Positions 1,912 to 63,791 of a DNA stretch of 64,000 bases are shown here, piece by piece; position 1 is the first letter of the stretch, and each line of letters opens with the position of its first letter. The notes beneath the pieces were generated by a model. It saw nothing but the letters and a program-made list of their open reading frames with translations, did not search any database and was not told where the DNA came from. The DNA comes from an uncultured Planctomycetales bacterium. GTDB lineage: Bacteria > Omnitrophota > Gorgyraeia > Zapsychrales > Fredricksoniimonadaceae. Location: assembly GCA_964572155.1 (NCBI GenBank), contig CAZNDZ010000001.1:15300-79299 (forward strand), read 5' to 3'. A program made the position numbers and the translations under genes.

Positions 1912-1976
1912 TTATGCAATATACTTTTTTCTTTTTATATGGTCAACTGTTTTGTCCAACGTTATAATAAGATACC

Positions 1977-33011: not shown

Positions 33012-33631
33012 ACGTCTTTGAACAGGGATTATTAAGATATTTAAAACCCGAACAACTGGCCGTGATCCAATCGAAAAAAGTTGGGATCGGCGGTGCAGGT
33101 GGCTTAGGAAGCAATTGCGCCATGATGCTCGTGCGCAGTGGTTTTAAACATTTAGAAATCATCGACCAAGATGTGATCGACGCCTCCAACCTTAATCGTC
33201 AGCAATTTTTTACCGCCGAGATCGGTCAACCCAAGGTCAACATCACCAAAAAACGCCTACTCGACATCAATCCCGACGCCCACATCATCACCCATCATAT
33301 TCAATGGAATGAAACAATTGGGGTTAACTTATTCAAAAATTATGATTTTATTGTCGAAGCCTTCGACAATGCTGAGTGGAAATTCAGATTCGTGCAATTT
33401 TACGCAAACAAGTTTCCCGTGGTCGTCAGTGGTGTTGGCATGGCAGGTTTATTAGAAAAGAAACCAATGCAAAAGAAGAAAGTCGGAAACATTTATTTCT
33501 GCGGCGATTTATCGACGGATTCAGCGCAAGGACATCCCCCAATGGCGCCAAGGGTTTCACAATGCGCCGGCATGATGGCAGAAGTTGTTTTAGATTTGAC
33601 CTTAGGACTTACTTCTGTTTCATCCCACTAA
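33008..33631 (+). CDS. thiF: Sulfur-carrier protein adenylyltransferase (short ThiF/MoeB family)
   Basis: VGIGGAGGLGSNCAMMLVRSGFKHLEIIDQDVIDASNLNRQ is the E1-like Rossmann motif. ATGA overlap with thiH. Confidence 0.75.
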   Translation: MNVFEQGLLRYLKPEQLAVIQSKKVGIGGAGGLGSNCAMMLVRSGFKHLEIIDQDVIDASNLNRQQFFTAEIGQPKVNITKKRLLDINPDAHIITHHIQWNETIGVNLFKNYDFIVEAFDNAEWKFRFVQFYANKFPVVVSGVGMAGLLEKKPMQKKKVGNIYFCGDLSTDSAQGHPPMAPRVSQCAGMMAEVVLDLTLGLTSVSSH

Positions 33632-47726: not shown

Positions 47727-50438
47727 CTATTTTGCGTCAAGTAAAACCTTGATCGCACGGACGCCTTTAATCTGCTCTCTTGCAATACAAACACCGCCAT
47801 CAAGATGCGGTATAAAATCTAATGATCTGCCATCAGCGCTGATCGCCTTAATGGCATACTTACCAAATTCCAATCGCTTGGGGTTTTGATATTCAACGAC
47901 AACTTGCGTTTGAGCAAATTGACAGCTCACGGCAGCTAAACCCTTGGCATTAAACTGGTTTTTAACCAGCTTCGGATCCAGCCATAAATCACCATATGAC
48001 CCTCTGACACCAAAACTTTGAGTTAATAGCGTCAAGACCAACCAGCTCGCTGAACCTGTTAAATAGTGGTACATGCCTTGGCCATTGGAATCAAAATATT
48101 CTGGGATGCCTGGGTAAATCTTACTCGTATTGCCATCAACAGCCATTTTATAAATGGAATCAATGACATCATAACCTTCTTGCGCAAAACCGCGCACATA
48201 TAAGGCATATGCATACATGACATTCATGTGCGAGAAAAACGCACCATTTTCTTTGGTGCCATAGGCAAAACCAAATGCTCGCCCTAAATCTAAATAATGG
48301 CGCACGCCAAAATCGGTGTTTAAGCGATAACCGCCATGCTTTTTATCTTTCAAGAACCGACGGACAGAGACAATCACATCCTTGGCTTCATCTTCTTGGG
48401 CTAAGGTGCTCATCAATGTAAAGACTTGACCCGTTAACGTCATGCGAACATTGTCATCGATCTTACCTTCAACACGACGGGCTTGATTATCATAGTAACC
48501 ATTGAACCACTGATATTTCTTACCTTCATGCGTCACAGAAATTTTTTCTTGATGACGGATGTGTTGAAATATCCAATGCCCTTTCTTACGCAAATCTTGG
48601 GCAATTAGTTCTAAAGAAACTTCCACATGCTCGCCGCTAATGGCAGGTTGCACATGATGGCAATAATTTTCAAATAAGTACGCTTTCTTGTCTTGCCAAC
48701 GATCATAATTAACAGGATGCTCGCCTAAGGTATCAAGCAAAATGACAATTTCTTTGGCCAAACGCACGACACTTATCTTTTTGGCAGTACCTAACGCTTC
48801 AATCAAATCTGCCAACTTCAATAAATTGCCCGCATAAAGCGCCGTAAACGCAACACTTTCGCCGCGATCAAAAGCCATATCAAGACCGTCATTCCAATCC
48901 GCATTTTCTAGACGGATGATATTATGTTCACCAACATTAAAGAATTGTGTCAAATGCTGCACTAATAAATGCTCGAGGATTGTTCCTTCGTGCACGTGAC
49001 CTTTTTTATCGAGCAATTTATTACCATAGGCCGAAACCCATGCAATGTCTTTGTCATACGTGCGCGACAATTGTGGATCACGGAAATACGTTTGTCTCTG
49101 CAGTAATAAATCAAAATCGCCCGTTTGATGAATATATAACAGCGTCGTTAAAAATGGCCAGCTGCCATGATCCATCCATACGCGGGTAATGGCATTACGA
49201 TCAGCAAAAAATTCACCGAGTTTATTGCCGATGATCGTGGCATTGCTACCGTCGATGCGAATACCAGAAAAGTTATTGATTAAACCATCTCTAACCAAAT
49301 GTGGTTCGATTAAAATAAGCGACAACAAATCTTGCCATAAGTCACGCCAACCTTTACCGCCTTTGCCATAATCATGGTCGGGCAAGAAGGAACAACCAAA
49401 AATGCGACGCAATACCGGTTGCACGGTGACCCAACGCATCCAACCGTTGAACGTTTCATCACCGGTCTTAAAACCAATCGTTGATGTTTTTTCGCTCCAA
49501 AATTTCTTATTTTCTATTAAAGCAGCGTCAAACTTTGAGCTGCTGCTAAATTTCTTAAATGTGCTATGCGCCTCTTTAGCGTCGGATACAACACCAACAG
49601 CAATGATAAAATCTTTCGATTGTTTGGATTTAAGCGTTACATCTTTAAAACGCAAAGCCCCAACCACTTCCTTGCCTTGCATTTCGGCGGGCGTTAATCG
49701 ACGTGGTTTTACATTTTCAATCACTGCGTGTGGCGCAATCATTGTGCCGACATCGCCATAAAAAACATCCACCGTCGGAAATGTTCCAAGCGGTAATGCA
49801 TTTTTATCATCCACCCCAAAGACAAAATAACTCGAATGAATTTCTTTGTGCCCCTCTTCATTAAATGCCATGGTGGGCTCAACTAAGATGCCCTCAGATA
49901 ATTGCACTGTACGATTGAGCAACGCTGTTACATGCTCATGATCATGCTTGTTGGCCAAGGACCTACCAAAGATGGGCACGGCCGCTGTGGGGGTGAATGT
50001 GATTGTCTTTTTAGAAATATTCTTAACCGTCACACGCATGAGCTCAACAGGCTCATTGCTCGACGGAATAAAATTAATGGCGGATAATTCAATGCCGCTT
50101 TTTTTATCGCTGCGCACCAAGCTGTGCCACAATTGACCAACCGTGATGGTTGCTTGATCATCAAAACCAAAACCTGCCAATGACAATGTCGACTTACCCT
50201 TAATATGGACAAAGAAATTACGCACAGGATAACGCAGATCTTCACGAGAAGCGGGTTTGGTCACGTAATGAAATTTATCGGTCTTGATATCCCCACTTAA
50301 AGACGGCGTAATAGCCGACTTTAAGCTTGTCGCTTCAGCTCCGCACAAAGGCGCATACATAGTTTTCATCTTGGCCGCTTGTGTACTTACAAACGTCGCC
50401 TGATCATCAATAAAATTAAAAAATGGTTTCGTTGGCAT
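47727..50438 (-). CDS. GH94-like glycoside phosphorylase / (alpha/alpha)6-barrel glycosidase (cellobiose/cellodextrin/beta-1,2-glucan phosphorylase-like)
   Basis: 903 aa with no signal peptide, so cytoplasmic. Motifs GKGGKGWRDLWQDLL and NADWNDGLDM resemble the conserved Arg/Asp catalytic regions of GH94 phosphorylases. Sits behind the sugar ABC importer. Confidence 0.5.
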   Translation of the reverse strand: MPTKPFFNFIDDQATFVSTQAAKMKTMYAPLCGAEATSLKSAITPSLSGDIKTDKFHYVTKPASREDLRYPVRNFFVHIKGKSTLSLAGFGFDDQATITVGQLWHSLVRSDKKSGIELSAINFIPSSNEPVELMRVTVKNISKKTITFTPTAAVPIFGRSLANKHDHEHVTALLNRTVQLSEGILVEPTMAFNEEGHKEIHSSYFVFGVDDKNALPLGTFPTVDVFYGDVGTMIAPHAVIENVKPRRLTPAEMQGKEVVGALRFKDVTLKSKQSKDFIIAVGVVSDAKEAHSTFKKFSSSSKFDAALIENKKFWSEKTSTIGFKTGDETFNGWMRWVTVQPVLRRIFGCSFLPDHDYGKGGKGWRDLWQDLLSLILIEPHLVRDGLINNFSGIRIDGSNATIIGNKLGEFFADRNAITRVWMDHGSWPFLTTLLYIHQTGDFDLLLQRQTYFRDPQLSRTYDKDIAWVSAYGNKLLDKKGHVHEGTILEHLLVQHLTQFFNVGEHNIIRLENADWNDGLDMAFDRGESVAFTALYAGNLLKLADLIEALGTAKKISVVRLAKEIVILLDTLGEHPVNYDRWQDKKAYLFENYCHHVQPAISGEHVEVSLELIAQDLRKKGHWIFQHIRHQEKISVTHEGKKYQWFNGYYDNQARRVEGKIDDNVRMTLTGQVFTLMSTLAQEDEAKDVIVSVRRFLKDKKHGGYRLNTDFGVRHYLDLGRAFGFAYGTKENGAFFSHMNVMYAYALYVRGFAQEGYDVIDSIYKMAVDGNTSKIYPGIPEYFDSNGQGMYHYLTGSASWLVLTLLTQSFGVRGSYGDLWLDPKLVKNQFNAKGLAAVSCQFAQTQVVVEYQNPKRLEFGKYAIKAISADGRSLDFIPHLDGGVCIAREQIKGVRAIKVLLDAK

Positions 50439-50452
50439 AGAGAGGGATTACT

Positions 50453-50776
50453 TTAGGCGAGGGAATATTTCATCAGACGCGACATCTTTAATAAATTTAT
50501 TTTAGGAAAATTAACACCCACATCCCACATATTGGCGCTTGCTGGTTTACTCCATGCAACGCGACCTGTAAGGATTAAGGGAGAACCACCATCTGGCATT
50601 TGCACTTCTATCGATACAGGATCATCAAGGAACATGCGTTCACGGGTGCTAATGCGAATACCAGAAGCCGATGCGTCTCTTAAAAAAACTTCAACCCCAT
50701 AATCCGCACGAAAATCTTTAAAGCGCGTCGGAAAACGAGTCGAGAATCGCTCAAATATGCGGCGTTCTTGATCCAT
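50453..50776 (-). CDS. Standalone PilZ-domain protein (c-di-GMP receptor-like)
   Basis: RRIFERF (RxxxR) and DASASGIRIS (DxSxxG), the two c-di-GMP-binding PilZ motifs. 107 aa. Confidence 0.65.
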   Translation of the reverse strand: MDQERRIFERFSTRFPTRFKDFRADYGVEVFLRDASASGIRISTRERMFLDDPVSIEVQMPDGGSPLILTGRVAWSKPASANMWDVGVNFPKINLLKMSRLMKYSLA

Positions 50777-50779: not shown

Positions 50780-51109
50780 TTATACTGTTTTCAAATATTT
50801 ATTCAAACGTGTTGCTGAACCTGCTAAAACTTCTTGGAAATTCATGCCAATGCGGTATTGCTTTGATTCTTCAATCTTACGCACCCATTTGACAACACCC
50901 AAAACCAACACCGGCGCTGTATCAGGCTGTAATTGGATTTCAATCGCTACTTTTTCATTGATCTCATGTGCGTGGCTCGAGATAAAACCAATGCCGTTCT
51001 TGCTAATGTCAACCGTTCTGGTTTGATCAAAAGCAGAACCTTCTTTCCCTTCTACCGGAACAATACAACCATGACGCGATTCAGTGCGTTTGTTAGCGGC
51101 AGATTTCAT
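50780..51109 (-). CDS. Standalone PilZ-domain protein (c-di-GMP receptor-like)
   Basis: KRTESRH (RxxxR) and DISKNGIGF (DxSxxG). 109 aa. Tandem with the previous PilZ gene. Confidence 0.65.
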   Translation of the reverse strand: MKSAANKRTESRHGCIVPVEGKEGSAFDQTRTVDISKNGIGFISSHAHEINEKVAIEIQLQPDTAPVLVLGVVKWVRKIEESKQYRIGMNFQEVLAGSATRLNKYLKTV

Positions 51110-51312: not shown

Positions 51313-51510
51313 ATGGCAAAGAAACCCGCACCTGCAAAAGTAAAATTCAATATTGCTGAATACAATAAAGGAAAAGATCTGCGCGAAAAGAACAGATTAA
51401 AGCTGTTTTACCCTACCTTAGTGAAGGTTTTGGTAGCCATTCCTGTCGTCTACTTCTTATTTTTGATTATTTACTTCTTAACCACTGCGAAGAACCTGCC
51501 TGAACGTTAA
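51313..51510 (+). CDS. Hypothetical small Lys-rich protein with one C-terminal TM helix (only plus-strand gene in this region)
   Basis: 65 aa, MAKKPAPAKVKF...VKVLVAIPVVYFLFLIIYFLTT. A TATAAT box ends 8 nt before the ATG and there is no SD, so possibly leaderless. Could also be a spurious ORF. Confidence 0.3.
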   Translation: MAKKPAPAKVKFNIAEYNKGKDLREKNRLKLFYPTLVKVLVAIPVVYFLFLIIYFLTTAKNLPER

Positions 51511-52787
51511 AACTTGTAGATAAAAACGATGAAGTATCTGGATCTTGACTTATAGAATCCAAAGGTATTGCTGGGATCTCCGGCGAAGATATCCATACCA
51601 ATCTTAACTTGCCAATGGCTATTGATATTGTATTTTAAACTGGGGCGATAGAGGAAATCGGGGCTGTCAAGGCTTGCCAACATCATAAATTCGGCATCAA
51701 GCTTGTGATTTAAGAAGTCGCGCGATACTCGAAACGATGCACCATTAGAAAACCGATGTTCATTATAGAACGATTCATTGTAATCCAAGACCACCTTTTG
51801 AAAATATTGTACGCCCACATTGATCTTATCGAAAAACGTCTTATCCATCCCCAAAACATAGGTTAAATCATCACTGCGTGCCACCCCATCGTCATCACTT
51901 GGATCTAAAGAGGAAAAATAATTGTCTTTATTAAAAACAAACTCACCGCTGATGACGGTCTCACCGACTTCTTTTGAAAAAGAACCGCCAAATGAATTAA
52001 GACGCTTATATTGAGGATCGAAATTATAAACACCACTGCCGCTAATCGTGCGAAATGCCACGGGCGCATGCGTCCAACTATACACATAAAATGCCCCAAG
52101 ATCGTAGCCGCCAAGTAAGTAAGATACACGCGCACCAGCCTTGGCATCACTAAAACCATAAGGTTGTTTTGGGTCAGCTGTTGTAAAGGAAACACCTGGC
52201 GGCACTGGCAAAGGATTAGCAAATTCAGCCCCATCAACACCCATCCGATCAAATTCTGGAGCAGGGATGATAAATGTTTCCGCATGAAATTTATCGCGCG
52301 TATATTCCACATCTGCACCCCACTCAGGAGTTCGGATTTGATCGAAATCCATGAGTGTATTCTTGCGATAATCCTTGGCATTCACAATATCGGCAACAAA
52401 AGCGCCAACCGCATCACCCCAAACAATTTGCTGTTTGCCTAGACGCACGTCCCAAGGACCGTTGGAATAATCCAGATAGGTGTCGCGCAGATCAGCTTGC
52501 AGGCGTTCATCGGAGGCCGCATTGACCGAATAATTGTCTTGATCAAACGCCGCGTCATAATTAAATCTACCGCTAACACGATAATGCAAGGTTTTTGTCA
52601 AATCACCGGAGCCATCTAAAATCACTTGTGATTGGATGTTGGAAAATTTATCTGAGGCATACATGTGACGCGCCAAGGTTTGCGACATCGAACCATGCAA
52701 GACAAAAAGATTCTCATCCGCTGCAGCTAAAGTGCTGCATGCGCAAACCATCAACAACAAACCAAATGCACGGATTTGAATTTTCAT
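51507..52787 (-). CDS. Putative outer-membrane beta-barrel protein
   Basis: Signal peptide (LLLMVCACSTLAAADE). Tyr/Gly/Asp-rich alternating pattern. C-terminus YFIVFIYKF ends in Phe. 426 aa. Confidence 0.5.
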   Translation of the reverse strand: MKIQIRAFGLLLMVCACSTLAAADENLFVLHGSMSQTLARHMYASDKFSNIQSQVILDGSGDLTKTLHYRVSGRFNYDAAFDQDNYSVNAASDERLQADLRDTYLDYSNGPWDVRLGKQQIVWGDAVGAFVADIVNAKDYRKNTLMDFDQIRTPEWGADVEYTRDKFHAETFIIPAPEFDRMGVDGAEFANPLPVPPGVSFTTADPKQPYGFSDAKAGARVSYLLGGYDLGAFYVYSWTHAPVAFRTISGSGVYNFDPQYKRLNSFGGSFSKEVGETVISGEFVFNKDNYFSSLDPSDDDGVARSDDLTYVLGMDKTFFDKINVGVQYFQKVVLDYNESFYNEHRFSNGASFRVSRDFLNHKLDAEFMMLASLDSPDFLYRPSLKYNINSHWQVKIGMDIFAGDPSNTFGFYKSRSRYFIVFIYKF

Positions 52788-52805: not shown

Positions 52806-53549
52806 TTAATAAGCCAATTTTTTTAAATACTCTTTGGAAAAATATTTTTCTGGAATTTCTTGTATCGTAATATCGCCATATTCAATCGTCGAATATTGAC
52901 CTTTCATAACGGCATCAGACAATACCAGCTTTGATGGACGCTCTGCACCTCCCAATGTCTTATAATTCTCATAACTACATGTCTTCAAAAACCTACCACT
53001 GATGGCATAAAATTCTGCTTTTAATGGCCAAAATGTATCATGTTCAGCCCATAAAATGACTTTGCCGTAGGTCGCCGTATCTGTTTTAGCTTTTAATTCC
53101 AATACATAATATTTTTTACCATTAATATCATCATCACGTAGCATGGTGGCATTATAGTCGCCGGAAAAATTGGTGCGGGCTATATCGCCATTGCTCACAT
53201 CCCCTGTTAACTTTTCTTGTAGTGAAATGCGCAAAGGTTTGGCAACTTCGGGAAAGAATGCCCAGAAATCTGGGCCACGCATTAATAATGATCGCCCTCG
53301 TTCCGTTTGAGGCTCTATGGTCTTGATGATGGTATTATCTTTCCCCTTTAACAATACTTCATACTTTGCCATGCGCTGCGCACGATTGGGCTTATAGCTA
53401 GTCACCGTGGCAATGCTCGAATGATCCTCAGCCACATTACGCACCCCGTCAACCTTAGCCACAATCTCATCCGGTGTTAATTGTGCCCATGTTGCCGTCG
53501 ATAAAATACATGCCGCAATGGTGGTAACCATCAAAAATGAATGTCTCAC
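52806..53549 (-). CDS. Outer-membrane lipoprotein-sorting protein (LolA-like fold, PF17131-type)
   Basis: Signal peptide, then QLTPDEIVAKVDGVRN...F.P......ISLQEKL, the characteristic start of LolA_like proteins that accompany FtsX-type ABC transporters. 247 aa. Confidence 0.55.
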   Translation of the reverse strand: MRHSFLMVTTIAACILSTATWAQLTPDEIVAKVDGVRNVAEDHSSIATVTSYKPNRAQRMAKYEVLLKGKDNTIIKTIEPQTERGRSLLMRGPDFWAFFPEVAKPLRISLQEKLTGDVSNGDIARTNFSGDYNATMLRDDDINGKKYYVLELKAKTDTATYGKVILWAEHDTFWPLKAEFYAISGRFLKTCSYENYKTLGGAERPSKLVLSDAVMKGQYSTIEYGDITIQEIPEKYFSKEYLKKLAY

Positions 53550-53553: not shown

Positions 53554-54423
53554 TTACTCCGTCTTTAATGTTAGCGAATAAATCATGCGTTTTAAACGTT
53601 GTAAAGGGCTTTTCATCCCTAAAGGATAATATCGTTGATTCACCTGTTGGGTGAACATATCAAACTGATAAATATGCGGCGCATAATCAACCTTGGCTTT
53701 GCCTGTTAACATCTTGACGGTTTCTGTGCTCGACAAAGCCCCAACCAGCATAAGCCCAGGGCAAACACTAGCCCCTCGACGCTGCTTCGGATTCAATACC
53801 CGAGAGCGATCAAGGTATTTTAAACAAAATGGATTTGGATTTAAGCCCGCAATCATGGTTAAAATTTTTTGAGTAGGATCAAGCTTGTCGGAAAAATCAA
53901 AATATTCATCAAAGCTCATGCCTGTTGGAGAAAACATGATCATCGTCGCCCCAAAACCCATGGGTGCACATGTTAAAGACGGGATGCCTTTAAGCCGCGT
54001 GTGACGAAAGAATAAACGTTTGACCTCGATCTCATAGAGATCAATTCCATCTAATGCCACATCAACACCGTCTAAGAATGCTGTGATATTTTCTGGGTTA
54101 ATGCCTTTGGAAAAAACTTCCACCTTCGCTTGTGGATTGATATCTAAGATCATCTGACGCATGACCTCGCATTTGTCCACACCGATCGTCGACATCGTCG
54201 CACCCATTTGTCGATTCATATTGGTCATATCAAAGGTATCTAAATCCGCAATGCGAAAAGCACCGACACCTAAACGTGCTAAAGCCTGAGCTTGGTATCC
54301 ACCGGCCCCACCAACACCGGCAATGGCCACAAGCGAGCTTTTTAATTTAGCTTGTTGCTCCTCGGTGAGCCAACCTAAATTGCGATCAAATGCTTTTTCA
54401 TAAACAAATTCATTAGCCGGCAT
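53554..54423 (-). CDS. ThiF/MoeB/HesA-family E1-like adenylyltransferase
   Basis: SLVAIAGVGGAGGYQAQALARLGVGAFRIADLDTFDMTNMNRQ is the nucleotide-binding Rossmann motif of E1-like enzymes. 289 aa. Not part of the thi operon. Confidence 0.7.
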   Translation of the reverse strand: MPANEFVYEKAFDRNLGWLTEEQQAKLKSSLVAIAGVGGAGGYQAQALARLGVGAFRIADLDTFDMTNMNRQMGATMSTIGVDKCEVMRQMILDINPQAKVEVFSKGINPENITAFLDGVDVALDGIDLYEIEVKRLFFRHTRLKGIPSLTCAPMGFGATMIMFSPTGMSFDEYFDFSDKLDPTQKILTMIAGLNPNPFCLKYLDRSRVLNPKQRRGASVCPGLMLVGALSSTETVKMLTGKAKVDYAPHIYQFDMFTQQVNQRYYPLGMKSPLQRLKRMIYSLTLKTE

Positions 54424-54425
54424 GA

Positions 54426-54914
54426 TTATGAGCTTTCCGTCTTAGGTGAATATTTTTCTTTATAATATTTTTTCAAATCTTGGGGCGTATGGTTATGTTG
54501 CAAAAAATTTGCGCGCCATGTTTTGGCTTTATGGCAATGAGGCAAATCTTTATTTTGTATCGGGCAGTAGCGTTTTTCTATTTCATTGGTGATGGCCAAG
54601 GTCCATTGCAAGGTGCCGTTCGCCCACTCGCAATATTCACACCACATCTTATCCATGAATCCCATGTGAGGCACTTTGTGACGATCATATTGAAAAAAGT
54701 TTTTAGGATCGACGGGTTTTTGCCCACGCAGGCTAAAATACGCCCAATTAAAAAAGAACGTGTACAAATATAAGGGCAACAAAAATATGGCAAAAGAAAC
54801 CATGACGGGATAACCCAATAACGGGGTTAAAGGCCCGAGGGGTTGTTTGTGACCTTCACAACAACTAAGCTCTTTTAAACAAGCTTGGACACTTACTTTT
54901 TCTGTATTAGACAT
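54426..54914 (-). CDS. Cys/His-rich single-pass membrane protein of unknown function
   Basis: 162 aa, one TM (GYPVMVSFAIFLLPLYLYTFFF). Cys/His clusters (CLKELSCCEGH, CEYCEW, CP...HCH). 2-nt gap to the ThiF-like gene. Confidence 0.4.
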   Translation of the reverse strand: MSNTEKVSVQACLKELSCCEGHKQPLGPLTPLLGYPVMVSFAIFLLPLYLYTFFFNWAYFSLRGQKPVDPKNFFQYDRHKVPHMGFMDKMWCEYCEWANGTLQWTLAITNEIEKRYCPIQNKDLPHCHKAKTWRANFLQHNHTPQDLKKYYKEKYSPKTESS

Positions 54915-54973: not shown

Positions 54974-56194
54974 TTAAATTTCGTAGATTTCTTTAAGGTA
55001 AGCTTGATGCTCGGGCTTGAAGTTATTCCAGAATGTGCTGTTTTTAACAAGGCCTTGTACAAACGGTTTAGACAAGGTGAAATCCATGTTAAAGGTGCGT
55101 GGGTATTTCGTTTCTTTAAAGAAGTACATGCCTGGGCCTTCTTTAAGCAACATCGTATGGCGATAAGCATCCGGGATGCTTAATTTCATCAACACCGCCG
55201 GAGCAGCGTTGGCACCATGATAGGCTTTTGCTGGGCTGATGGTTTCAAAATTCAAATATTTGTATAAGAATTCATGGCGTGGATGACAACCGATGATAAA
55301 ATCCGTAACCTTATTCGACGCACGTGCATAATCGAACATCGTCTTGTATAACTTATATAGATACGCTTGTTTCTGGAAATTCTTAAACGAGTATTGCTTC
55401 ATGTTCACATGTTGAGAATTTAACGCCAATGCGCCTACTTCCGCAATCTTCTTGCCTTGTGCACGCAGGTTCTTAATTTCTTCAGGAAAAATTGTTTCCA
55501 TCGGAATGCCCATCGGTGAATCTGCCACCAAACACATGGTCCCTAAAAGTTTTTCATCTTTGCGAAGCAAGAAGGTGCGTGATCCGGGAACAAAACTATA
55601 AGAATTATAAAACATGTTTTCTTGATTAGGCACACACAACTTGCGTGACAAATATTCTTGATACACCAACGCATATGCCGCTTTTAATTCATCCAAATCA
55701 TCGACGTCTAAACCACTACAATCTGCCGTATATTTTTCTAAGAACCAGCTATTAATATCAGCCAAACTCCAAAGCACATTATTTAATTGATGAAATTTGA
55801 TCGCTTTTTCTTTAAACGCAATGTGACATAGGTTCTGATTATTTTTACCTGTAGAAAAACCAACAACCTTGCCCGTTAATTTAAAAACTTCACGGACATT
55901 CATATTCTTCTTGGGTATCTCAACATCAATGGCTTCTCCAACTTCAACCAAACCACTAACTTCAATGCACATACCGCTACGAGAAATATTAACCGTCTTT
56001 GACATTTCCCACGTAGGATTAACTTGATTTGATAATTGGTAATATATAGGAATGACTTTATTAATGCGGTTTTCGCGGCGTAATTCATCCACAAAAACAG
56101 TTTTCATAATACTGGAAGATAACTGCTGAAGCCCTTCTTCCAAATGTTCGAAGGGATTGCTTGATTCTGTAGTATGGTCCAACTTGAATTTCAT
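54974..56194 (-). CDS. Fusion of an N-terminal PilZ domain with a C-terminal GNAT-fold N-acyltransferase of the FeeM/OlsB/autoinducer-synthase-like family (Acetyltransf_5)
   Basis: PilZ motifs ELRRENRI (RxxxR) and NISRSGMCIEV (NxSxxG). The C-terminal about 250 aa (LKAAYALVYQEYL..., FLLRKDEKLLGTMCLVADSPMGIPME, IAEVGALAL) fits the N-acyl-amino-acid synthase family pattern. Confidence 0.5.
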   Translation of the reverse strand: MKFKLDHTTESSNPFEHLEEGLQQLSSSIMKTVFVDELRRENRINKVIPIYYQLSNQVNPTWEMSKTVNISRSGMCIEVSGLVEVGEAIDVEIPKKNMNVREVFKLTGKVVGFSTGKNNQNLCHIAFKEKAIKFHQLNNVLWSLADINSWFLEKYTADCSGLDVDDLDELKAAYALVYQEYLSRKLCVPNQENMFYNSYSFVPGSRTFLLRKDEKLLGTMCLVADSPMGIPMETIFPEEIKNLRAQGKKIAEVGALALNSQHVNMKQYSFKNFQKQAYLYKLYKTMFDYARASNKVTDFIIGCHPRHEFLYKYLNFETISPAKAYHGANAAPAVLMKLSIPDAYRHTMLLKEGPGMYFFKETKYPRTFNMDFTLSKPFVQGLVKNSTFWNNFKPEHQAYLKEIYEI

Positions 56195-56298: not shown

Positions 56299-57564
56299 TT
56301 ATCGATGTCTTAGCGCGTCGGTGATGACGAGTTTGGAGGCGCGGTAGGCGGGACATAAGGAGGAAATGGCGCCGATGATAACGCAGAGGATAAAAGTGGT
56401 TAAAAGGACGCTTGGAACGATGCTGGGTTGGGATAACCAGTTCATGGTGCCGCCTGGTGCGGGGGGCATGACAATGCCGATAGCGGCAATTGAGGATACA
56501 ATGCCACTGCCAATCGCTAACCCTAAGGCCCCACCAATCGACCCCAACAATAAACCTTCCAATAAAAATAATTTCATGATGCCGCTACTCCTGATCCCTA
56601 AGGCCATAAGTGTACCTATCTCACTAATCCGCTCTAATACGGCCATATTCATGGTATTAAAAACACCTAAGATCACCACAATGGACACAACCACGCGCAT
56701 GATCAAATGGAACATGTCAAACAATTCAACGGTCTTTGTATAAAAGTCGGTGATTTCTCTCCAGTCTAAAACTTCTAAATCTAAATGATTCTCCTGGAAG
56801 ATGGCTTGAAGTTTTTTCTTCATAGCAACCGTATCATCGTCGTTGCGCAAATAAACAACCAACGTTTGCACAGAATCTGTGCCTAACAATTTCTGAGCTG
56901 TCTTTAAAGGAACACGCAAGAAAATGTCATCAAAACTTTTTACCCCTGAATAAAATACCGCCTTGGTATTTAAGTCCATGGCATTGGATGATCCGTTGAC
57001 GGTATTGGTCAATAACGTCACATTCATGCCCGGGTGCGCGTCCATGGTTTGCGCCAACCCTCTGGCTAGAGCAACTTCTTTAAAGTCGTCCGCCGCTAAA
57101 CTCTGCCCCTCTTCGACAATCGGTAAGCCTACACTCTCCCCCTTATATAACTTTCTTAAATTGAGTGTATCTGCCTTAAGGAGCATTTTCTCATATACTG
57201 GATTAACCCCTTGTCCATAAAATGAGACCGTAGTTTCCCCAGTACTTAAAAGACCCGCAAAAATAATGCGCGGTGCCACATAATCCACATCAGGGACAGC
57301 CTTAACCAATGCCTCTACTTTAGAAAGATCCTCGATAAAATAGCTATATGGATCAGTTTTGCCGTATTGAATAAAGCCCTTCTTATTGATCTGCAAATGA
57401 CCTGTTTGACTCTTAATGTAACTGGCGCGCATTTGCCAGAAGGTGTTTTCAAAGAAACCCCCAACAAAAATGAGCGCGGTACAGCCAAAGACAATCGTCG
57501 ACAACGTAATAAGCGACCTTGCCCGATGACGAAATATATTGCGAAATGCTAATTTAAACATCAT
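56299..57564 (-). CDS. FtsX-family ABC transporter permease (MacB/LolE-like) with a large periplasmic domain
   Basis: [34 protein letters not shown]-terminal TM1 signature, about 230-aa periplasmic domain, three C-terminal TMs. 421 aa. Confidence 0.8.
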   Translation of the reverse strand: MMFKLAFRNIFRHRARSLITLSTIVFGCTALIFVGGFFENTFWQMRASYIKSQTGHLQINKKGFIQYGKTDPYSYFIEDLSKVEALVKAVPDVDYVAPRIIFAGLLSTGETTVSFYGQGVNPVYEKMLLKADTLNLRKLYKGESVGLPIVEEGQSLAADDFKEVALARGLAQTMDAHPGMNVTLLTNTVNGSSNAMDLNTKAVFYSGVKSFDDIFLRVPLKTAQKLLGTDSVQTLVVYLRNDDDTVAMKKKLQAIFQENHLDLEVLDWREITDFYTKTVELFDMFHLIMRVVVSIVVILGVFNTMNMAVLERISEIGTLMALGIRSSGIMKLFLLEGLLLGSIGGALGLAIGSGIVSSIAAIGIVMPPAPGGTMNWLSQPSIVPSVLLTTFILCVIIGAISSLCPAYRASKLVITDALRHR

Positions 57565-59318
57565 GCGGTGATAACCCCATCCCAGATGCGCACCAATCGA
57601 TCGGCCTCATCCATGACTTTTTGATCGTGGGTTGAAAATATGTAAGTGATCTTCTTTTCACGACTGCTCTTCTTCATTAGCGCAATGATCTCTTCGCCTG
57701 TTTTATGATCGAGGTTCGCTGTTGGCTCGTCGGCTAAGATGAATAGTGGCTCACGCACCATGGCACGGGCAATGGCCACTCGTTGCTGTTGGCCGCCACT
57801 TAACTCTAAGGGCTTATGGTTGGCATGCTTCGATAAACCAACTGCATCCAATGCCGCCAACGCTTTACGTCGACGCTCTTGCGGTGTCATAGTCTTTTGT
57901 AACAATGGAAACTCAACATTCTCAACAGCTGAAAGCACAGGCAACAAATTAAAATTCTGAAAAATAAAACTAATCTTATGCGCCCGCAAATCAGCCAACG
58001 CATCGGGCGATAATTTCGACACATCTTGACCATCGATGATCACCTGTCCGGAACTAGCCGTGTCAATGCAACCAATGATATTGAGCAACGTCGTCTTACC
58101 GCTGCCCGACGGGCCAGCAATGGCTAAAAATTCCCCACGGCCAACGCTTAAATTGATGCCTTTAAGCACATCGACGCGGTTCTTGTTTAAAAAATAGCTT
58201 TTATTAACATTGCTGATATTAATTAACGACATATGATTATCCTTATTGACGGCATCTTTGACCATGATCTCATTTAACGACAGCCGAATTGACCGTGATG
58301 TTTTAGGTTTAGCAAATCCAACCCGCCCCATCCACACCAAATTCTTACGAATACTGTCACTCCCTAACAATGTTGATAAGTCCTCTTTAATATCCATCGC
58401 TTTTTCTTTTACATGCGGCATGGTCGACAAAACCTTACCCTCATCAAGATACTTTGAAAAAAGCATGGGTGTATACGACGGCTGATGCGACAATCCTTGG
58501 GATGTTAGTGCCAACCAAAAGCGTTGGATAGCTCTACCCGCCGCTATCCAATCCTCAGGCGTTGTAGGTGTTTTATCAGTGACGATGGCAATGCCAGCAG
58601 AGCACATGATGTTGGGCAATAATTCCAACTTCAATGCGGTCATATAATGACCTAACATCAAACGGTTATAGGCTTCCATGCGTTGCGGTTTACCTAAGAA
58701 CCAACGCATGATCGGCAAGAATAGTGTTGGCATACCTAAAGCCTTAGACGGAATTCGATCAGGACTTAAGTCGTGTTCCCAATCAACAATCTTGCTGTGC
58801 ACATCAAACATTTCTGGAATTAAATACCGTAACGCTGCTGATTTGAAAATGAGCGAAGCAAAATCCATTTTTTGTTTATCTTCAAACCATAAAATCTTAT
58901 ACCCCGACGGCATTTGTGCTTCTATATTTTTCTTTTCCGTATCTTTTAACGGTGTCATGGCATATGTGAAACGATTGACCATCCGGTGTTCGATGAAACG
59001 GGCTAATGGATCAACCTTAGGATTTTGTGATTTTGAAACAACGACACGATAAACCGGCGCTTTGCCTAGTTGTGGTGGATCTACCTTATCAACAACGATA
59101 TCAAATCCCAAAGCCCCTGCTGCTGTATGCATATTTTCCAAAAAACAGCCTAAGGCAATATGATCAGAATGTCGATTTAGATGAAAGATGGTGTCGAGCA
59201 AATACCCCGTTGTGACCTCACAAGCATCCTCCGCGATCATCTTAACCCGCCATGCCTGTTCATTGTCTCCGCTGGGCGCCCATCGAGCTTTATCTAAAAG
59301 TTTTTCAATATGTGTCAC
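57561..59318 (-). CDS. Fusion: N-terminal nitroreductase-like domain (about 360 aa) + C-terminal LolD/MacB-type ABC ATPase
   Basis: N-terminus [13 protein letters not shown] matches the nitroreductase APSxxNxQPW signature, plus HRMVNRFTY (RxSxRxF-like). C-terminus [13 protein letters not shown] (Walker A), [14 protein letters not shown] (ABC signature), ILADEPT (Walker B). ATGA overlap with the downstream FtsX gene. Confidence 0.65.
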
Positions 59319-59339: not shown

Positions 59340-60608
59340 CTACCTGTAACGCAATGCTTCGACAATATTAAGCCGCGATGCCCTGCATGCAGGAAACCAC
59401 GACGATATTCCGCCAATCATGGTTGATAAAAAAAATGTAAATACCATCACCGAAGGCACAATGACTGGCTGAGAAATCCAACTCATGGTGGTTCCCGGCG
59501 ACGGCGGCATCACAATCCCAACCTTGCTAATACCAAAAACAATCACACATCCCATGCTCACACCAATCAAACCACCGACCATCCCCAAGAGGATGCCTTC
59601 GTATAAAAACAATGTCAAAATGCCTTTGCGTTTAACACCCATGGCCATGATGGTGCCAATTTCACTAAAACGTTCCATGACCGACATGTTCATGGTGTTA
59701 AAAATTCCCAAAATAACGGCGATGGATATAACAATGCGCATCACCCAATGGAATGTATTAAATAGATCTGCTGTCTTTACATAGAAATCAGAAAGCTCGT
59801 CCCATGTTTTAATTTCTAAATCATAGTGATACAACTTAAACAAGCGCTCTAGCCCTGCTTTCACCTTTAAGGTATCGTTGGTATTATGCAACTTCACAAC
59901 AATGTTTTGAACCGATGTTGTATTGAGCATTGATTGCGCTGTGGCTAAGGACATTCTAACGGTCATGTCATCATAATTCTTATCTGACGTTGCCATTACG
60001 CCTTTGACGTGCATGTCCATGGCATTAACACCGCCATGGACGGTATTGGTCATCACCGTCACAAATGCCCCTGGCTTCACATTAAGCGCTTCTGACAAAC
60101 CTTTGCCAATGATCAACGTTTCTGGCACATCTTGGGCGCTTAAACCATCCCCCACAATGATTTCACCTAATCCATTATCATCAGGACTTATCGATGTCGA
60201 TTTTCGGTCTTTGTATTTTGACGTTAAGAAGGTGCGGTCAAAATCAATGTTAACACCTTGACCCATGCATGGCAGTGAAGCATCGCCCAAATTGATAAGA
60301 CCAGAAAACTGCAAACGCGAACCAACCGATTTTACTTGTGGGATCTTATGAATCACATCCGCAATGGCTTGCGGGTCGCTAATGAGATAACTATAGGGCG
60401 AAATCTTGCTGTTTTTTTCGTAACCCGCTTTGAATATCTGAAGATGTCCAATTTGAGCATTGATGTAACTTTCTTTCATTTGAGTTAACGCATCGGTGAA
60501 GAATCCAGCGACAAACATGAGAGCGACACAACCAAAAGCAATCGTTGATAATGAAATGATCGATCGCGCTTTATGTCTAAAAATATTTCGCAAGGCAATA
60601 TTAAACAT
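59340..60608 (-). CDS. FtsX-family ABC transporter permease (LolC/MacB-like), paralog of 56299..57564
   Basis: MFNIALRNIFRHKARSIISLSTIAFGCVALMF and the same architecture as the paralog. The longest ORF extends to 60653, but the Met at 60608 aligns with the paralog start. Confidence 0.75.
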   Translation of the reverse strand: MFNIALRNIFRHKARSIISLSTIAFGCVALMFVAGFFTDALTQMKESYINAQIGHLQIFKAGYEKNSKISPYSYLISDPQAIADVIHKIPQVKSVGSRLQFSGLINLGDASLPCMGQGVNIDFDRTFLTSKYKDRKSTSISPDDNGLGEIIVGDGLSAQDVPETLIIGKGLSEALNVKPGAFVTVMTNTVHGGVNAMDMHVKGVMATSDKNYDDMTVRMSLATAQSMLNTTSVQNIVVKLHNTNDTLKVKAGLERLFKLYHYDLEIKTWDELSDFYVKTADLFNTFHWVMRIVISIAVILGIFNTMNMSVMERFSEIGTIMAMGVKRKGILTLFLYEGILLGMVGGLIGVSMGCVIVFGISKVGIVMPPSPGTTMSWISQPVIVPSVMVFTFFLSTMIGGISSWFPACRASRLNIVEALRYR

Positions 60609-62190
60609 CGGAGTACCTTCCCGGAGACATGATGCCTTTAGGATCAAGGGCATGCTTAATGGAACGCTGTACTTTCCAAAATGTATCCTCAGGGTTTACC
60701 AAATCATGCATCATATCAACACCTGTGCGATAAGGATATACACCCATCTTACGCCCACCTTCTAACAATGCTTCAAAACAGGCCTTGGCGCGTTGTGTTT
60801 GATCTTCGTTGTTTAAATCAAAAAGAATTGGGACCGTACTATCAAAACATTTTTCAGAAACACTCGATAACGTGATCAATGGCTCCATTTGATACTGCGC
60901 ACATGTGCGCTCGACAAAATCAATATAACGTCTAACAAGTGCCGCTTTCATGGGAACTAATGGTGCGTACCATAAAAGACCACAACCATCCCGTGCTGGA
61001 TTTAACGTAACCCCTTGGGGAACACCTTGCCGCAACTGACGATAACATAAACTTAATGCCCCACCGTTGGGACGCCCCTCAGATAGATCTAATGGGATCA
61101 GCATTTTTTGAAACTGCACAAATAAGGCTTTTGGAATAATAAACCCCAATGGTTTTAAAATCGACTGCAGCAAGAGCACACGCGAACGTGTTAAGAAAAT
61201 CACCCGATTCACATCTGGTTTAATGCGTGCTTTGAGCGCATGCTTAGCTGCTTTGATGATCGATTTCTTTCCATAAAAAGAACCAATGCATGTCCACGGC
61301 GCATATCCTGCTTGCTTGGCCTGTTGCTTTAAGTGTGCAATAAAATTATTTGGGGATGCCGCAACCTCATCAAAAGGAAACGGAAGTGTCATGGATAGCA
61401 ATTGCAATGAACTGATCATTTTAATTGAACCAATCAAAGCACCATGTTCAATCAGAACATTTCGCACCAGGTCAACAGTCTTTTCCAAATCAGCATCTGA
61501 GGAAATGTCAAAATAAAATGTTTCCACATGTTCTGGTCGTGGGGCTAAGGCAATGGTCATTTCTGTGACAATGCCATAATTGCTTTGTGAAAATATACCA
61601 TCAATATATGGGCCTATCCCCCATTTAAAAACCTTGTCGACCTGATGACATCCTTTCGCATAAATCGCTGAACGATATATGGTCCCATTGGCCAATACCG
61701 CTTCTAAATTCATGACAGCGAAGAAATGGTCCGCAAGAGGAACCAAGCCATAGCCGCGCTCTAAAGCATTCCCTAGAATACTAGCCTCAGGACCTGCACC
61801 TGTTGTTGGCATAAGATACTCATCACCATGTTCTAATAAAAATGTCGCTAGTTGCCCTTGCGTTACCCCTGGCTCTACAGTGATCACTCCCAAATCAGCA
61901 TCATAGCCACTAATTTTTGTCATGCCTGAAAGATCAACAATCACACAACCATCCGTTGCTGGATTAGCAGTACCATAACCCCAATTATTGCCTTTGCTAA
62001 TAGGATATAAAGCAATGTTATGTTGATTAGCAATTTTAACAATATCCACGACTTCTTGTCGTGTGGTCGGGGCAACAACGCCTAATATTTCACGTTTGGC
62101 ACCTGTTGTATCAGCATGGTATTTTTCAAGATCTTGCGGATTTGTTTTCACATGGATACTACCAAATATGTGCATCATTTTATCAATCAT
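60601..62190 (-). CDS. FAD-linked oxidase (PCMH-type FAD_binding_4 domain, VAO/GlcD superfamily)
   Basis: N-terminal FAD-binding domain (VVAPTTRQEVVDIVKIANQHNIALYPISKGNNWGYG...VIVDLSGMTKI), C-terminal substrate-binding domain ending SPGRY. 529 aa. Confidence 0.65.
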   Translation of the reverse strand: MIDKMMHIFGSIHVKTNPQDLEKYHADTTGAKREILGVVAPTTRQEVVDIVKIANQHNIALYPISKGNNWGYGTANPATDGCVIVDLSGMTKISGYDADLGVITVEPGVTQGQLATFLLEHGDEYLMPTTGAGPEASILGNALERGYGLVPLADHFFAVMNLEAVLANGTIYRSAIYAKGCHQVDKVFKWGIGPYIDGIFSQSNYGIVTEMTIALAPRPEHVETFYFDISSDADLEKTVDLVRNVLIEHGALIGSIKMISSLQLLSMTLPFPFDEVAASPNNFIAHLKQQAKQAGYAPWTCIGSFYGKKSIIKAAKHALKARIKPDVNRVIFLTRSRVLLLQSILKPLGFIIPKALFVQFQKMLIPLDLSEGRPNGGALSLCYRQLRQGVPQGVTLNPARDGCGLLWYAPLVPMKAALVRRYIDFVERTCAQYQMEPLITLSSVSEKCFDSTVPILFDLNNEDQTQRAKACFEALLEGGRKMGVYPYRTGVDMMHDLVNPEDTFWKVQRSIKHALDPKGIMSPGRYSDV

Positions 62191-63791
62191 CGAGAGTACC
62201 TGCCTGGAGACATGATATTGTTAGGATCTAATGCCTGCTTGATCGATGCTTGTACATTCCAAAATGAATGTTCTGGATCAACCACGTCTTTCATCATGCC
62301 AATGCCCGCCCGATGAGGGTATGCCCCTCGCAAACGCCCCCCTTCAATCAGCGCCGCTAAACACTCTTTGGCTCGCCGAGACTGATCTGTATTCATCGGA
62401 TCAAATAAAATAGGTATTGGGCTAATGATGCAACGTTCCGAGATGCTGGTCAATGTTACTAATGGTTCAATGCCGTAATGCTCACATGTGTTTTCTACAA
62501 ATTGAACATACGCACTTGCGGTATGCGGCTGTAATGGTAAAAGTGGTGCATACCAATAAATACCACATCCATCCGCTGCTGGATTTAGATTCTTTCCTTT
62601 GGGAACACCTTGACGCAGTTGTCGATAACATATGTGCAACGTTTCCTGCCGCGGCTTACCTGACAAAATATCGAGCATCATGGTCATCTTTTCAAAACGA
62701 TTCCTAATTTTCGAAAACAAATTCTTCGGTAAACGTGAAAATAACGCATCAATGAATAAAATTTTCTCTTTAGATAAGAACAAAACCCGTCGAGATCGTT
62801 CTCTAACTATTTTGACCAATTCTTTTTTAACAGCTTGGATGACATACTTATGTCCGTAAAGTGATCCCATGCAAGTCCACGCATAAAATCCATTTTCTTT
62901 GGCTTTACGCTTTAAAATACTTTTGGCTTTATCTGGCGTGGCATCAATTTCATCAAAAGGATAATCTGCGGTCACAGCTGATAATCGTAAATCACTCATG
63001 ATATTGATTGACCCAGAAAACACACCAACATCTTTAAGTATTTTTCTAACCGTCACTATCGCATCCTCTAAATCTTCTTCCTTTGAGAATTCAATGAAAA
63101 ATATTTCGATGCATTCTGGCTTGGGTCGCAAGGCAATCGTTGCTTTTGTCACAATACCAAAATTACTTTGAGAGAACAAACCATCGAGATATGGGCCAAT
63201 GCCCCATTTGAAGACCCCATCAACATCTTCACATTCTTTAGCATGGATGGCAGAATGATAGATACTACCATCAGCTAATACAACTTCTAAACTCATGACA
63301 GCAAGAAAATGATCCGCAATCGGCACTAAACCATAACCACGTTCTAAAGAATTTCCTAAGATCGTGCCATCAGGACCAGTGCTGGTCGTTGGGGTTATAT
63401 ATAAATCATCGTGTTTTAAAAGAAATGCCGCAAGCTGTTCTTGAGTAACGCCTGGCTCTAATGTCACAACCCCTAATTGTGGGTCGTAGCCACTAATAGT
63501 ATTCATGCCAGATAAGTCCACAATGACAGAACCACTTTGTGCAGGATTTGCCGAACCATATCCCCAATTATTTCCCTTACTAATAGGATATAGCGCAATG
63601 CCGTATTCCGACGCGATCTTAACAATCGCAACAACTTCAGTTGACGTGATTGGCCTTAAAACACCTGAAATGATGCGGGATGAATTTGTTGTATCAGCGT
63701 GGTACTTTTGCAAGTCAAACGCTTGTGTTTTTACGCGTTCAGCGCCAAGCAAATTTTGCCATGCAGTTAAAGCTACTGATAAGTTATCCAT
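62187..63791 (-). CDS. FAD-linked oxidase (PCMH-type FAD_binding_4), tandem paralog of 60601..62190
   Basis: VLRPITSTEVVAIVKIASEYGIALYPISKGNNWGYG...VIVDLSGMNTI, about 50% identical to its neighbour across the full length. ATGA overlap with the downstream paralog. Confidence 0.65.
   Translation of the reverse strand: MDNLSVALTAWQNLLGAERVKTQAFDLQKYHADTTNSSRIISGVLRPITSTEVVAIVKIASEYGIALYPISKGNNWGYGSANPAQSGSVIVDLSGMNTISGYDPQLGVVTLEPGVTQEQLAAFLLKHDDLYITPTTSTGPDGTILGNSLERGYGLVPIADHFLAVMSLEVVLADGSIYHSAIHAKECEDVDGVFKWGIGPYLDGLFSQSNFGIVTKATIALRPKPECIEIFFIEFSKEEDLEDAIVTVRKILKDVGVFSGSINIMSDLRLSAVTADYPFDEIDATPDKAKSILKRKAKENGFYAWTCMGSLYGHKYVIQAVKKELVKIVRERSRRVLFLSKEKILFIDALFSRLPKNLFSKIRNRFEKMTMMLDILSGKPRQETLHICYRQLRQGVPKGKNLNPAADGCGIYWYAPLLPLQPHTASAYVQFVENTCEHYGIEPLVTLTSISERCIISPIPILFDPMNTDQSRRAKECLAALIEGGRLRGAYPHRAGIGMMKDVVDPEHSFWNVQASIKQALDPNNIMSPGRYSR

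Follow-up and report, generated by a model that had tools for sequence, protein, structure and literature searches.

The closest described relatives of the gene cluster reported here make acyl-oxazolones or N-acyl-dehydrotyrosines. Tyr or Phe receives an N-acyl group from OxzA in Pseudoalteromonas rubra, and OxzB, a di-domain protein with a ThiF part and a nitroreductase (NTR) part, forms the oxazolone in an ATP-dependent manner (bioRxiv 10.1101/2020.06.11.147165). The products are tyrazolones and phenazolones (bioRxiv 10.1101/2020.06.11.147165; review PMC12596934), and OxzB is, according to the 2025 review, the sole ThiF-like enzyme validated on a small molecule (PMC12596934). The TyzABC system of Mycobacterium tuberculosis (Rv2336, Rv2338c, Rv2337c) has a ThiF cyclase, TyzB, that is separate from its flavin oxidase of the nitroreductase superfamily (FDO), TyzC (PMC10404671). 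The tyz genes are linked to oxidative-stress resistance and macrophage survival in this organism (PMC10404671). TrzAS (Rv1356c/Rv1355c) makes short-chain tryptazolones; here cyclisation precedes desaturation, and the Asp of the ThiF motif is essential (PMC12856293). The N-acyl-dehydrotyrosine clusters of Stieleria, Thalassotalea and Massilia combine a synthase of N-acyl amino acids (NAS) with a methyltransferase, a ThiF protein and a nitroreductase (PMC12479983). Here, we describe a ThiF-family adenylating enzyme and the gene cluster around it on a 64,000-nucleotide (nt) stretch of contig CAZNDZ010000001.1 from an uncultured Omnitrophota-like bacterium. We refer to this whole stretch as the window, and all cluster coordinates are given in window numbering.

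We propose, with a probability of roughly 0.75, that the ThiF-family enzyme is an ATP-dependent cyclodehydratase of an N-acyl amino acid lipid pathway. The pathway would lead to an acyl-oxazolone or N-acyl-dehydro-amino acid, probably derived from tyrosine, and would be encoded in a cyclic di-GMP (c-di-GMP)-responsive operon with Lol-like export. The assignment is made because NAS, ThiF and FDO are the enzyme set of the characterised acyl-oxazolone pathways and all three lie in one gene run. Since this set is complete, the likely substrate is an N-acyl amino acid, a small lipid, rather than a peptide. All pathway steps were assigned by homology and synteny.

A predicted acyl-oxazolone enzyme set in one gene run

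Ten genes on the minus strand are packed from 63791 down to 51507, with gaps of 2-104 nt and several overlaps. The predicted biosynthetic core, together with the gene next to ThiF, is as follows.

57561-59318, minus strand: 585-aa protein with an FDO domain and a LolD-like ATP-binding cassette (ABC) ATPase
58233-59318, minus strand: FDO domain, residues 1-362 of the 585-aa protein
57561-58232, minus strand: ABC ATPase domain of LolD/MacB type, an in-frame fusion with the FDO (PF00005, 112.9 bits)
54974-56194, minus strand: PilZ::FeeM N-acyl amino acid synthase, 406 aa (PF21926 FeeM, 123.9 bits; PF07238 PilZ, 31 bits)
54426-54914, minus strand: Cys/His membrane protein, 162 aa, of no described family
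53554-54423, minus strand: ThiF-family adenylating enzyme, 289 aa (PF00899, 137.7 bits)

In the synthase, the PilZ domain spans about 55811-56083 and the NAS domain about 55181-55681. Its translation contains RRENR (RxxxR) and NISRSG ((D/N)xSxxG), the c-di-GMP-binding motifs of PilZ domains. NAS-PilZ fusions have been described as Nas343 and Nas354, with PilZ at the C-terminus (PMC4897644), and a cAMP-activated NAS, NasP, is mentioned as a citation in the same paper (PMC4897644).

The FDO domain scores 97 bits with the NCBIfam model for the Acg/Rv3131 FMN oxidoreductase, 92.2 bits with the Rv1355c family model NF005901, over its C-terminal half (377-718), and 78 bits with PRK14851 (330-678). 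It thus falls with the Acg/Rv1355c lipid-desaturase group rather than with SagB. Homologues of the domain either stand alone, at 350-390 aa, or are fused to ThiF; 2 of 48 carry a ThiF domain. The FDO and ThiF genes of the window belong to the same run and lie two genes apart.

Fusions also tie the three proteins together. The window proteins match separate segments of the NCBIfam model PRK14852: FeeM at 37-202 (71.8 bits for the NAS), ThiF at 312-583 and FDO at 623-747. PRK14851 is matched by ThiF at 22-295 and by FDO at 330-678. By these segments, PRK14851 represents di-domain (ThiF+FDO) and PRK14852 tri-domain (NAS+ThiF+FDO) proteins. As an actual case of the latter, a 989-aa protein (WP_011176612.1) of the Desulfovibrio (Nitratidesulfovibrio) vulgaris Hildenborough megaplasmid pDV1 is collinear with the window FeeM, ThiF and FDO (E = 4e-25, 9e-62 and 4e-5, respectively). 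Since the three window proteins are domains of one chain elsewhere, this provides fusion (Rosetta-stone) evidence for their joint action.

Identity of the ThiF-family enzyme

The ThiF-family protein has 577 homologues at E<=1e-5 in a collection of 5.8 billion proteins, and an exact copy is present on 6 contigs. It passes the cut-off of NCBIfam NF006077/PRK08223 (343 bits; cut-off 266) and scores 255 bits against PRK14851 (cut-off 1170) and 198 bits against PRK14852 (cut-off 1337). In an alignment of 32 family members, the GxGGxGG motif (G36, G38, G39, G41, G42), R50, D60, D62, N68, R71, Q72, K84 and D125 are invariant. D125 is the presumed counterpart of TrzS D217, judged from motif position only. 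Neither a conserved Cys nor a CxxC/four-Cys zinc site is found in the family alignment, and thus no thioester step would be expected, which fits direct cyclisation rather than thioester or sulfur transfer.

One alternative is that the protein is a housekeeping enzyme, either a second TcdA or a MoeB/ThiF-type sulfur-carrier adenylyltransferase, that lies here by chance. TcdA, itself an ATP-dependent oxazolone-forming cyclodehydratase without the zinc cysteines of MoeB/ThiF (PMC12596934), is the nearest solved structure, with 74 bits for the single sequence and 97.6 bits for the family profile. With the profile, E. coli ThiF (93 bits) and MoeB (85 bits) follow closely. However, the TcdA match covers only the Rossmann half (about 23-156), and the family-specific models are far from reached: 74.4 bits for TcdA (NF011696, cut-off 304, residues 25-154 only), 91 bits for ThiF (TIGR02356, cut-off 275) and 65-79 bits for the MoeB models (cut-offs 266-449; NF006444, 79 against 449), whereas PRK08223 is passed. 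The four-Cys zinc site of MoeB/ThiF enzymes is missing. The only ThiS-like open reading frame (ORF) ending in GG, 31001-31225, belongs to the thi operon, and none lies near the cluster. That operon also has its own thiF (33008-33631), another PF00899 protein, which shares 38% identity with the cluster enzyme over 95 residues, in the nucleotide-binding region only. Together with the synteny of NAS, FDO and Lol-like genes, which is kept across phyla, these results make a housekeeping role very improbable.

The initial annotation had placed the enzyme among those that adenylate a peptide or protein C-terminus or an amino acid, as MccB, PaaA and TOMM partner proteins do, and had read the nitroreductase-like domain downstream as a hint of peptide-modification chemistry. 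On a ribosomal peptide, this domain would act as a SagB-type dehydrogenase. ThiF and NTR domains do co-occur in RiPP systems (those that make modified ribosomal peptides) too, and the family profile matches PaaA at 70 bits and MccB at 54 bits. But no plausible precursor-peptide ORF is found in the 2-104 nt gaps of the cluster or upstream of it, and the Pfam and NCBIfam scans reveal no YcaO gene. The Rossmann fold begins at about residue 24, compared with about 110-127 in MccB and PaaA, and residues 24-109 align with MccB 110-195 and PaaA 127-215, leaving no room for their N-terminal peptide-clamp extension of ~100 residues. Moreover, the neighbouring gene encodes a FeeM NAS, and the FDO is not of the SagB type. 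The peptide scheme is therefore largely refuted.

What holds of the original proposal is the more general part. An amino-acid carboxylate is the probable target of adenylation, and the functional tie between the ThiF and nitroreductase-like proteins is borne out by fusions and synteny, although the chemistry is not that of peptides and the FeeM NAS had been overlooked. The nitroreductase-like domain is real, being the N-terminal 362 residues of 57561-59318, and our searches agree that the enzyme is distinct from the thi-operon thiF and that a ubiquitin-like GG partner, a precursor peptide and YcaO are missing. As to whether the enzyme might belong to TcdA or MoeB clades and lack co-conserved neighbours, we found these models far under their cut-offs and the neighbours strongly co-conserved.

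Conservation of the cluster in relatives

ThiF homologues at 38-55% identity retain the same partners. The closest relative is an Omnitrophota locus (L005) that has the gene set of the window. Its FDO and ABC ATPase are encoded by two genes, and it includes a pair of PilZ-FeeM paralogues and a methyltransferase gene. The association with a methyltransferase is seen in L004, L005 and L013-L017. Two further loci, L039 (named Omnitrophota by its source) and L040 (which shares the flanking genes of L039), encode PilZ-FeeM, FDO, ThiF, LolA-like, FtsX and ABC proteins and an unassigned protein of 416-450 aa, with ThiF identities of 50-54%. Locus L038 carries FDO, ThiF, LolA-like, FtsX and ABC genes without NAS, beside exosortase EpsH-EpsI. 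In all three of these loci, the LolA-like gene lies directly downstream of ThiF, as in the window, and FDO is adjacent to ThiF.

Related gene sets are also found elsewhere. Locus L036, with a gene set as in the Methylococcales loci, comprises ThiF, Cys/His, FDO, FeeM with a cyclic-nucleotide-binding (cNMP-binding) domain, FtsX, ABC and HlyD-like genes. In Thiohalobacter sp. IOR34, methyltransferase-ThiF lies beside an FDO and two FeeM-like NAS genes, in a PEP-CTERM exopolysaccharide locus.

Some further features of these loci were recorded. In L005, two extra genes that are not in the window lie between permease a and the FDO (1864-3553). By eye from their translations, they encode an RmlA-like protein (glucose-1-phosphate thymidylyltransferase) and an NAD-dependent sugar epimerase/reductase. 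In the Methylococcales-type FeeM proteins (L013 8796-9935, L014, L016, L017 and L036 15681-16799), a C-terminal cyclic-nucleotide-binding domain replaces PilZ. Their genes are directly upstream of Cys/His-ThiF-methyltransferase and are flanked by PEP-CTERM proteins. The 989-aa pDV1 protein (L043 8062-11031; NC_005863.1), a NAS+ThiF+FDO triple fusion, bears only the annotation 'ThiF family adenylyltransferase'. The XrtA/PEP-CTERM exopolysaccharide locus around its gene also encodes PEP-CTERM proteins, a PilZ protein and sigma-54 regulators. The protein is an oxazolone synthase candidate from an organism amenable to genetics. Finally, on a 48-kb plasmid of Bdellovibrio sp. HAGR004 (L044; AP029178.1), genes for an ABC ATPase, an ABC permease and a hypothetical protein of 388 aa lie upstream of one for a 39%-identical ThiF, and thus related cassettes can be plasmid-borne.

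The Cys/His membrane protein

The gene directly upstream of ThiF encodes the Cys/His membrane protein. As the initial annotation had described, the ThiF ORF lies 2 nt from a 162-aa ORF with a single hydrophobic segment on the same minus strand: the TAA stop of the Cys/His ORF is at 54426 and the ATG of ThiF at 54423. The protein has 80 full-length homologues of ~165 aa. Its one hydrophobic stretch (about residues 28-60) has K/R at both flanks. In a 38-member alignment, D77, R78, H79, D88, W91, C92, Y94, C95, E96, W97, A98, N99, G100, W104, E111, E113, R115, Y116, C117, P118, I119, K131, W133 and R134 are invariant. Hence, of the CxxC, CC and HCH clusters noted earlier, the CxxC (C92/C95) is a family feature, as are H79 and C117, while the window protein's N-terminal CC and its HCH are not conserved across the family.

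An AlphaFold2 model (mean pLDDT 87, predicted local distance difference test) shows residues 27-62 as a long helix and the C-terminal domain as helical, with residues 86-116 forming a helix of 31 residues. In the model, C92/C95 sit at the start of this helix, near H79, and C117 is at its far end. From the secondary-structure string only, the three Cys may not share one site of the monomer. Metal binding via His79, Cys92, Cys95 and perhaps Cys117 is probable. The protein has no match in Pfam, NCBIfam or the PDB, whether by sequence profile or by Foldseek. A profile search recovered 484 more distant relatives that share DRH...CxYCxYANG...E-x-(Y/W)-(W/Y)-CPI; 10 of them were tested against Pfam and 7 against NCBIfam, with no meaningful match. 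Some relatives (P0207, P0257, P0265) are internal tandem duplications of 246-348 aa with two transmembrane and CxxC modules.

To describe the context of the family, 30 species-level genome loci with a family member were scored with hidden Markov models. ThiF is adjacent to the Cys/His gene in ten of these. In nine, namely Omnitrophota L005 and Methylococcales L013-L017, L019, L023 and L026, ThiF lies within 250 nt on the same strand, and in Sulfurovum (L028) a ThiF-FDO fusion is directly upstream of the Cys/His gene. A FeeM-type NAS is found within 8 kb in 11 of 30 loci, including three without ThiF (L018, Sphingomonas natans; L025; L027), and NAS or ThiF in 13 of 30. ThiF precedes Cys/His in L036 and L028 and follows it elsewhere. 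We conclude that the Cys/His protein is a facultative membrane-anchored accessory that has been repeatedly recruited to NAS/ThiF loci, often although not always. As a best guess, it may hold the soluble ThiF step to the membrane that contains the lipid substrate, or help this step there. The family is widespread with no described relative, and its recruitment beside ThiF/NAS genes represents a first functional lead.

The tight linkage could also be read in terms of transfer, with ThiF activating the N-acyl amino acid for transfer, not for cyclisation. The acyl-adenylate or the reactive oxazolone would go to a nucleophile such as an invariant Cys of the Cys/His protein, which would act as an E2-like protein or carrier, to give an exported lipid-, polysaccharide- or protein-linked conjugate. 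The two genes are translationally coupled, they are adjacent in three lineages and in varying order, and the Cys/His protein has the invariant RYCPI Cys besides its CxxC. Homologous clusters recur in PEP-CTERM/exosortase loci, and no oxazolones are reported from several ThiF-carrying producers (PMC12479983). On the other hand, the characterised ThiF homologues cyclise without a partner (bioRxiv 10.1101/2020.06.11.147165; PMC12856293), most of the sampled ThiF/NAS/FDO loci have no Cys/His gene, the Cys/His protein does not resemble E2, ThiS or carrier proteins, and no PEP-CTERM-type C-terminal tails were found in the window. We consider such a transfer quite unlikely.

A bolder variant makes the Cys/His proteins a new family of membrane-anchored metal/thiol partners of oxazolone-forming ThiF enzymes. 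They might capture the activated N-acyl-aminoacyl group (adenylate or reactive azlactone) for a membrane or surface acceptor, or might serve as a redox relay that frees the flavin desaturase from O2 in anaerobes. The cassette would then be a c-di-GMP-gated line with Lol-like export that places acyl-oxazolone lipids in the outer membrane. If true, this could explain the long-noted link of NAS to PEP-CTERM/exosortase systems; we hold it to be rather unlikely.

Weighing the assignment

Several observations weigh against the proposed pathway or parts of it. With the Rv1355c/TrzS model, the ThiF domain reaches only 75.5 bits, which does not exceed its scores with the ThiF and MoeB models. Its place in the TyzB/OxzB clade is suggested by fusion models, synteny and published work rather than by a tree. 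The role of ThiF has been called 'enigmatic' where oxazolones are not seen (PMC12479983). In the window, FDO is separated from ThiF by two genes. Desaturation by the characterised FDO enzymes needs O2, yet cluster relatives occur in often anaerobic lineages, and this step may thus not fit. As end product, an oxazolone and a ring-opened dehydro-amino acid are both conceivable, as are amino acids other than tyrosine.

The inclusion of the Cys/His protein is opposed by further data. Its gene is absent from all four ThiF loci that were sampled independently (L004, L038-L040), and 17 of the 30 Cys/His loci have neither ThiF nor NAS within 6-10 kb. Among these 17 are the 61-65%-identical relatives, most of which are flanked by an ammonium transporter on one side and a TPR protein on the other. 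These data would suit a protein unrelated to ThiF, for example a membrane or metal-homeostasis factor, that is an incidental neighbour of the cluster, as would the 484-representative superfamily, which has no consistent context in the few places examined. Against this stand the 10 loci in Omnitrophota, Methylococcales and Sulfurovum with ThiF at <=250 nt or a fused ThiF-FDO upstream, the three further loci with NAS nearby, and the varied order of the two genes, which argues for selected proximity. We regard an incidental presence as possible though doubtful, and the role of ThiF in the NAS/FDO pathway stands regardless.

Predicted export module and FDO::ABC fusion

The remaining genes of the run that are predicted to act in export are listed below.

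59340-60653, minus strand: FtsX/MacB_PCD permease a, LolC/E-like (PF02687 + PF12704)
56299-57564, minus strand: FtsX/MacB_PCD permease b, LolC/E-like (PF02687 + PF12704)
52806-53549, minus strand: LolA-like periplasmic lipid/lipoprotein carrier, 247 aa (PF17131, 155 bits)
51507-52787, minus strand: DUF1302-like predicted outer-membrane protein, 426 aa, the last gene of the cluster (PF06980, 51.7 bits)

The likely start of permease a is 60608, giving 422 aa as in the public gene call, and the translation of the DUF1302-like protein has a signal-peptide-like N-terminus. The ABC ATPase scores 225 bits against the LolD model, under the cut-off of 307.75, and permeases b and a score 88.8 and 100.7 bits against the lolCE model, under the cut-off of 362. 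On these scores, the module is classed as a Lol/MacB-like exporter, not LolCDE proper. Its cargo is probably a lipid product rather than lipoproteins, because the module is paired with the DUF1302 outer-membrane protein and biosynthetic genes. Such dedicated export with a LolA-like carrier and a DUF1302 protein suggests outer-membrane delivery or export of lipids.

Of 48 FDO homologues, the window protein alone has an ABC ATPase fused to it. We considered an assembly artefact and rejected it: the identical 585-aa product is recorded from 5 contigs, at least one of which comes from a Logan run assembly independent of the NCBI contig, and the fusion is thus taken as real. In L005, the FDO (3581-4642) and the ABC ATPase (4651-5322) are set apart by a stop codon and 8 nt, and the fusion appears to have arisen by loss of the upstream stop codon at the join. 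Separate translation of the ABC part from an internal ATG is possible. A flavin oxidase fused to a transporter ATPase hints at coupling of synthesis and export.

FAD oxidases and a substrate hint

The run begins with two flavoenzymes of the VAO/p-cresol methylhydroxylase (PCMH) type.

62187-63791, minus strand: VAO/PCMH-type FAD oxidase 1 (FAD_binding_4, PF01565 + PF02913), the first gene of the cluster
60601-62190, minus strand: VAO/PCMH-type FAD oxidase 2, 4-alkylphenol oxidase-like (FAD_binding_4, PF01565)

The PDB search and residue check were made for oxidase 2. It matches p-cresol methylhydroxylase at 207 bits and VAO and eugenol oxidase at 137-153 bits. When aligned to 1WVE, it keeps the residues at PCMH Tyr95, Tyr473 and Arg474, which we take to be the phenolate-binding triad, and has Asn in place of the covalent-FAD Tyr384. 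The VAO/PCMH subgroup acts on 4-alkylphenols, which fits a tyrosine-derived (4-hydroxybenzyl) intermediate, and so these oxidases suggest a tyrosine-type substrate. A 44%-identical homologue of oxidase 2 is encoded beside the Cys/His gene in Methylobacter (L027, 10706-12280).

Proposed pathway

We then propose the following model. The PilZ::FeeM synthase would N-acylate an aromatic amino acid, most likely tyrosine, with its activity modulated by c-di-GMP bound to PilZ. ThiF would adenylate the N-acyl amino acid, and attack by the amide oxygen would close the 5(4H)-oxazolone ring. The FDO could then desaturate the C-alpha/C-beta bond to give a conjugated oxazolone or, after hydrolysis, an N-acyl-dehydro-amino acid. 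The two PCMH/VAO-type flavoenzymes may oxidise the 4-hydroxybenzyl group further. The product would be passed to the LolCDE/MacB-like ABC exporter, whose ATPase is fused to the FDO, and would reach the outer membrane or cell surface via the LolA-like carrier and the DUF1302 protein.

This assignment turns an "orphan E1" into a testable enzyme and extends the acyl-oxazolone/N-acyl-dehydrotyrosine pathway, characterised before only in Pseudomonadota, Actinomycetota and Planctomycetota, to uncultured Omnitrophota-like bacteria. Second-messenger control seems to be built into the synthase, through PilZ in the window and a cNMP-binding domain in Methylococcales. The export and regulatory partners are useful clues to the physiological role of acyl-oxazolones.

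Neighbouring genes

On its 5' side, the cluster is bordered by the housekeeping genes mnmE, folC, purH and rpsU. On its 3' side, a 397-nt gap is followed by two single-domain PilZ genes and a GH94 gene. A promoter/terminator scan of 50.3-64 kb gave counts at or below shuffle expectation, and no operon boundaries were taken from it.

50780-51109 and 50453-50776, minus strand: two single-domain PilZ proteins (PF07238 hits on identical genes in L001-L003)

The two PilZ genes are neighbours of the cluster, and their membership in it is uncertain. Their translations have canonical RxxxR/DxSxxG motifs, and with the synthase they bring the PilZ domains within 6 kb to three. The pair is directly upstream of a GH94-family glycoside phosphorylase-like gene (47727-50438, minus strand) and a sugar ABC transporter. 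The 397-nt gap contains a 65-aa ORF on the plus strand (51313-51510), with a Lys-rich N-terminus, a single hydrophobic helix and no Pfam match, which is annotated as a gene in public assemblies (L001-L003).

Comparison with known systems

The chemistry of NAS, ThiF and NTR relates the window cluster to OxzAB, in which the substrate of ThiF is a small molecule instead of a polypeptide. The PRK14851 di-domain model, matched by both the window ThiF (255 bits) and the FDO (78 bits), may represent the OxzB family. TyzABC resembles the cluster in having a lipid exporter gene nearby, mmpL9 there and the Lol-like ABC genes here. It comes from another phylum, has no PilZ, Cys/His protein or PCMH-type oxidases, and its FDO is not the ABC-fused form of the window.

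In TrzAS, both halves of the 'Rv1355c family' model NF005901 are matched, by ThiF at 90-225 (75.5 bits) and by the FDO at 377-718 (92.2 bits), and the conserved adenylation Asp is present in the window ThiF (D125). These scores are far under the family cut-off of 476, which makes the window proteins homologues rather than members. The Stieleria, Thalassotalea and Massilia clusters contain a methyltransferase, which the window lacks, and no such export module or Cys/His protein has been described for them. TcdA/CsdL (PDB 4D79, 4D7A, 4RDH) is of the same chemistry class, in which an N-carbamoyl/acyl amino acid is cyclodehydrated to an oxazolone at the expense of ATP, but its substrate is tRNA and the match is limited to the Rossmann half.

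The pDV1 protein WP_011176612.1 unites NAS, ThiF and FDO in one chain and has a PilZ protein and an ABC permease nearby. It differs from the window in being a triple fusion in an XrtA/PEP-CTERM exopolysaccharide locus, with no Cys/His gene annotated in the 19 kb examined. The export module is similar to LolCDE-LolA and MacB in its two FtsX/MacB_PCD permeases, LolD-like ATPase and LolA-like periplasmic protein, yet all of the window proteins are under the LolC/D/E equivalog cut-offs. In Nas343 and Nas354, PilZ is C-terminal, while it is N-terminal in the window NAS. The core chemistry of the cluster is thus known, and what is new is the Lol-like export module, the FDO::ABC-ATPase fusion, the Cys/His family and the phylum.

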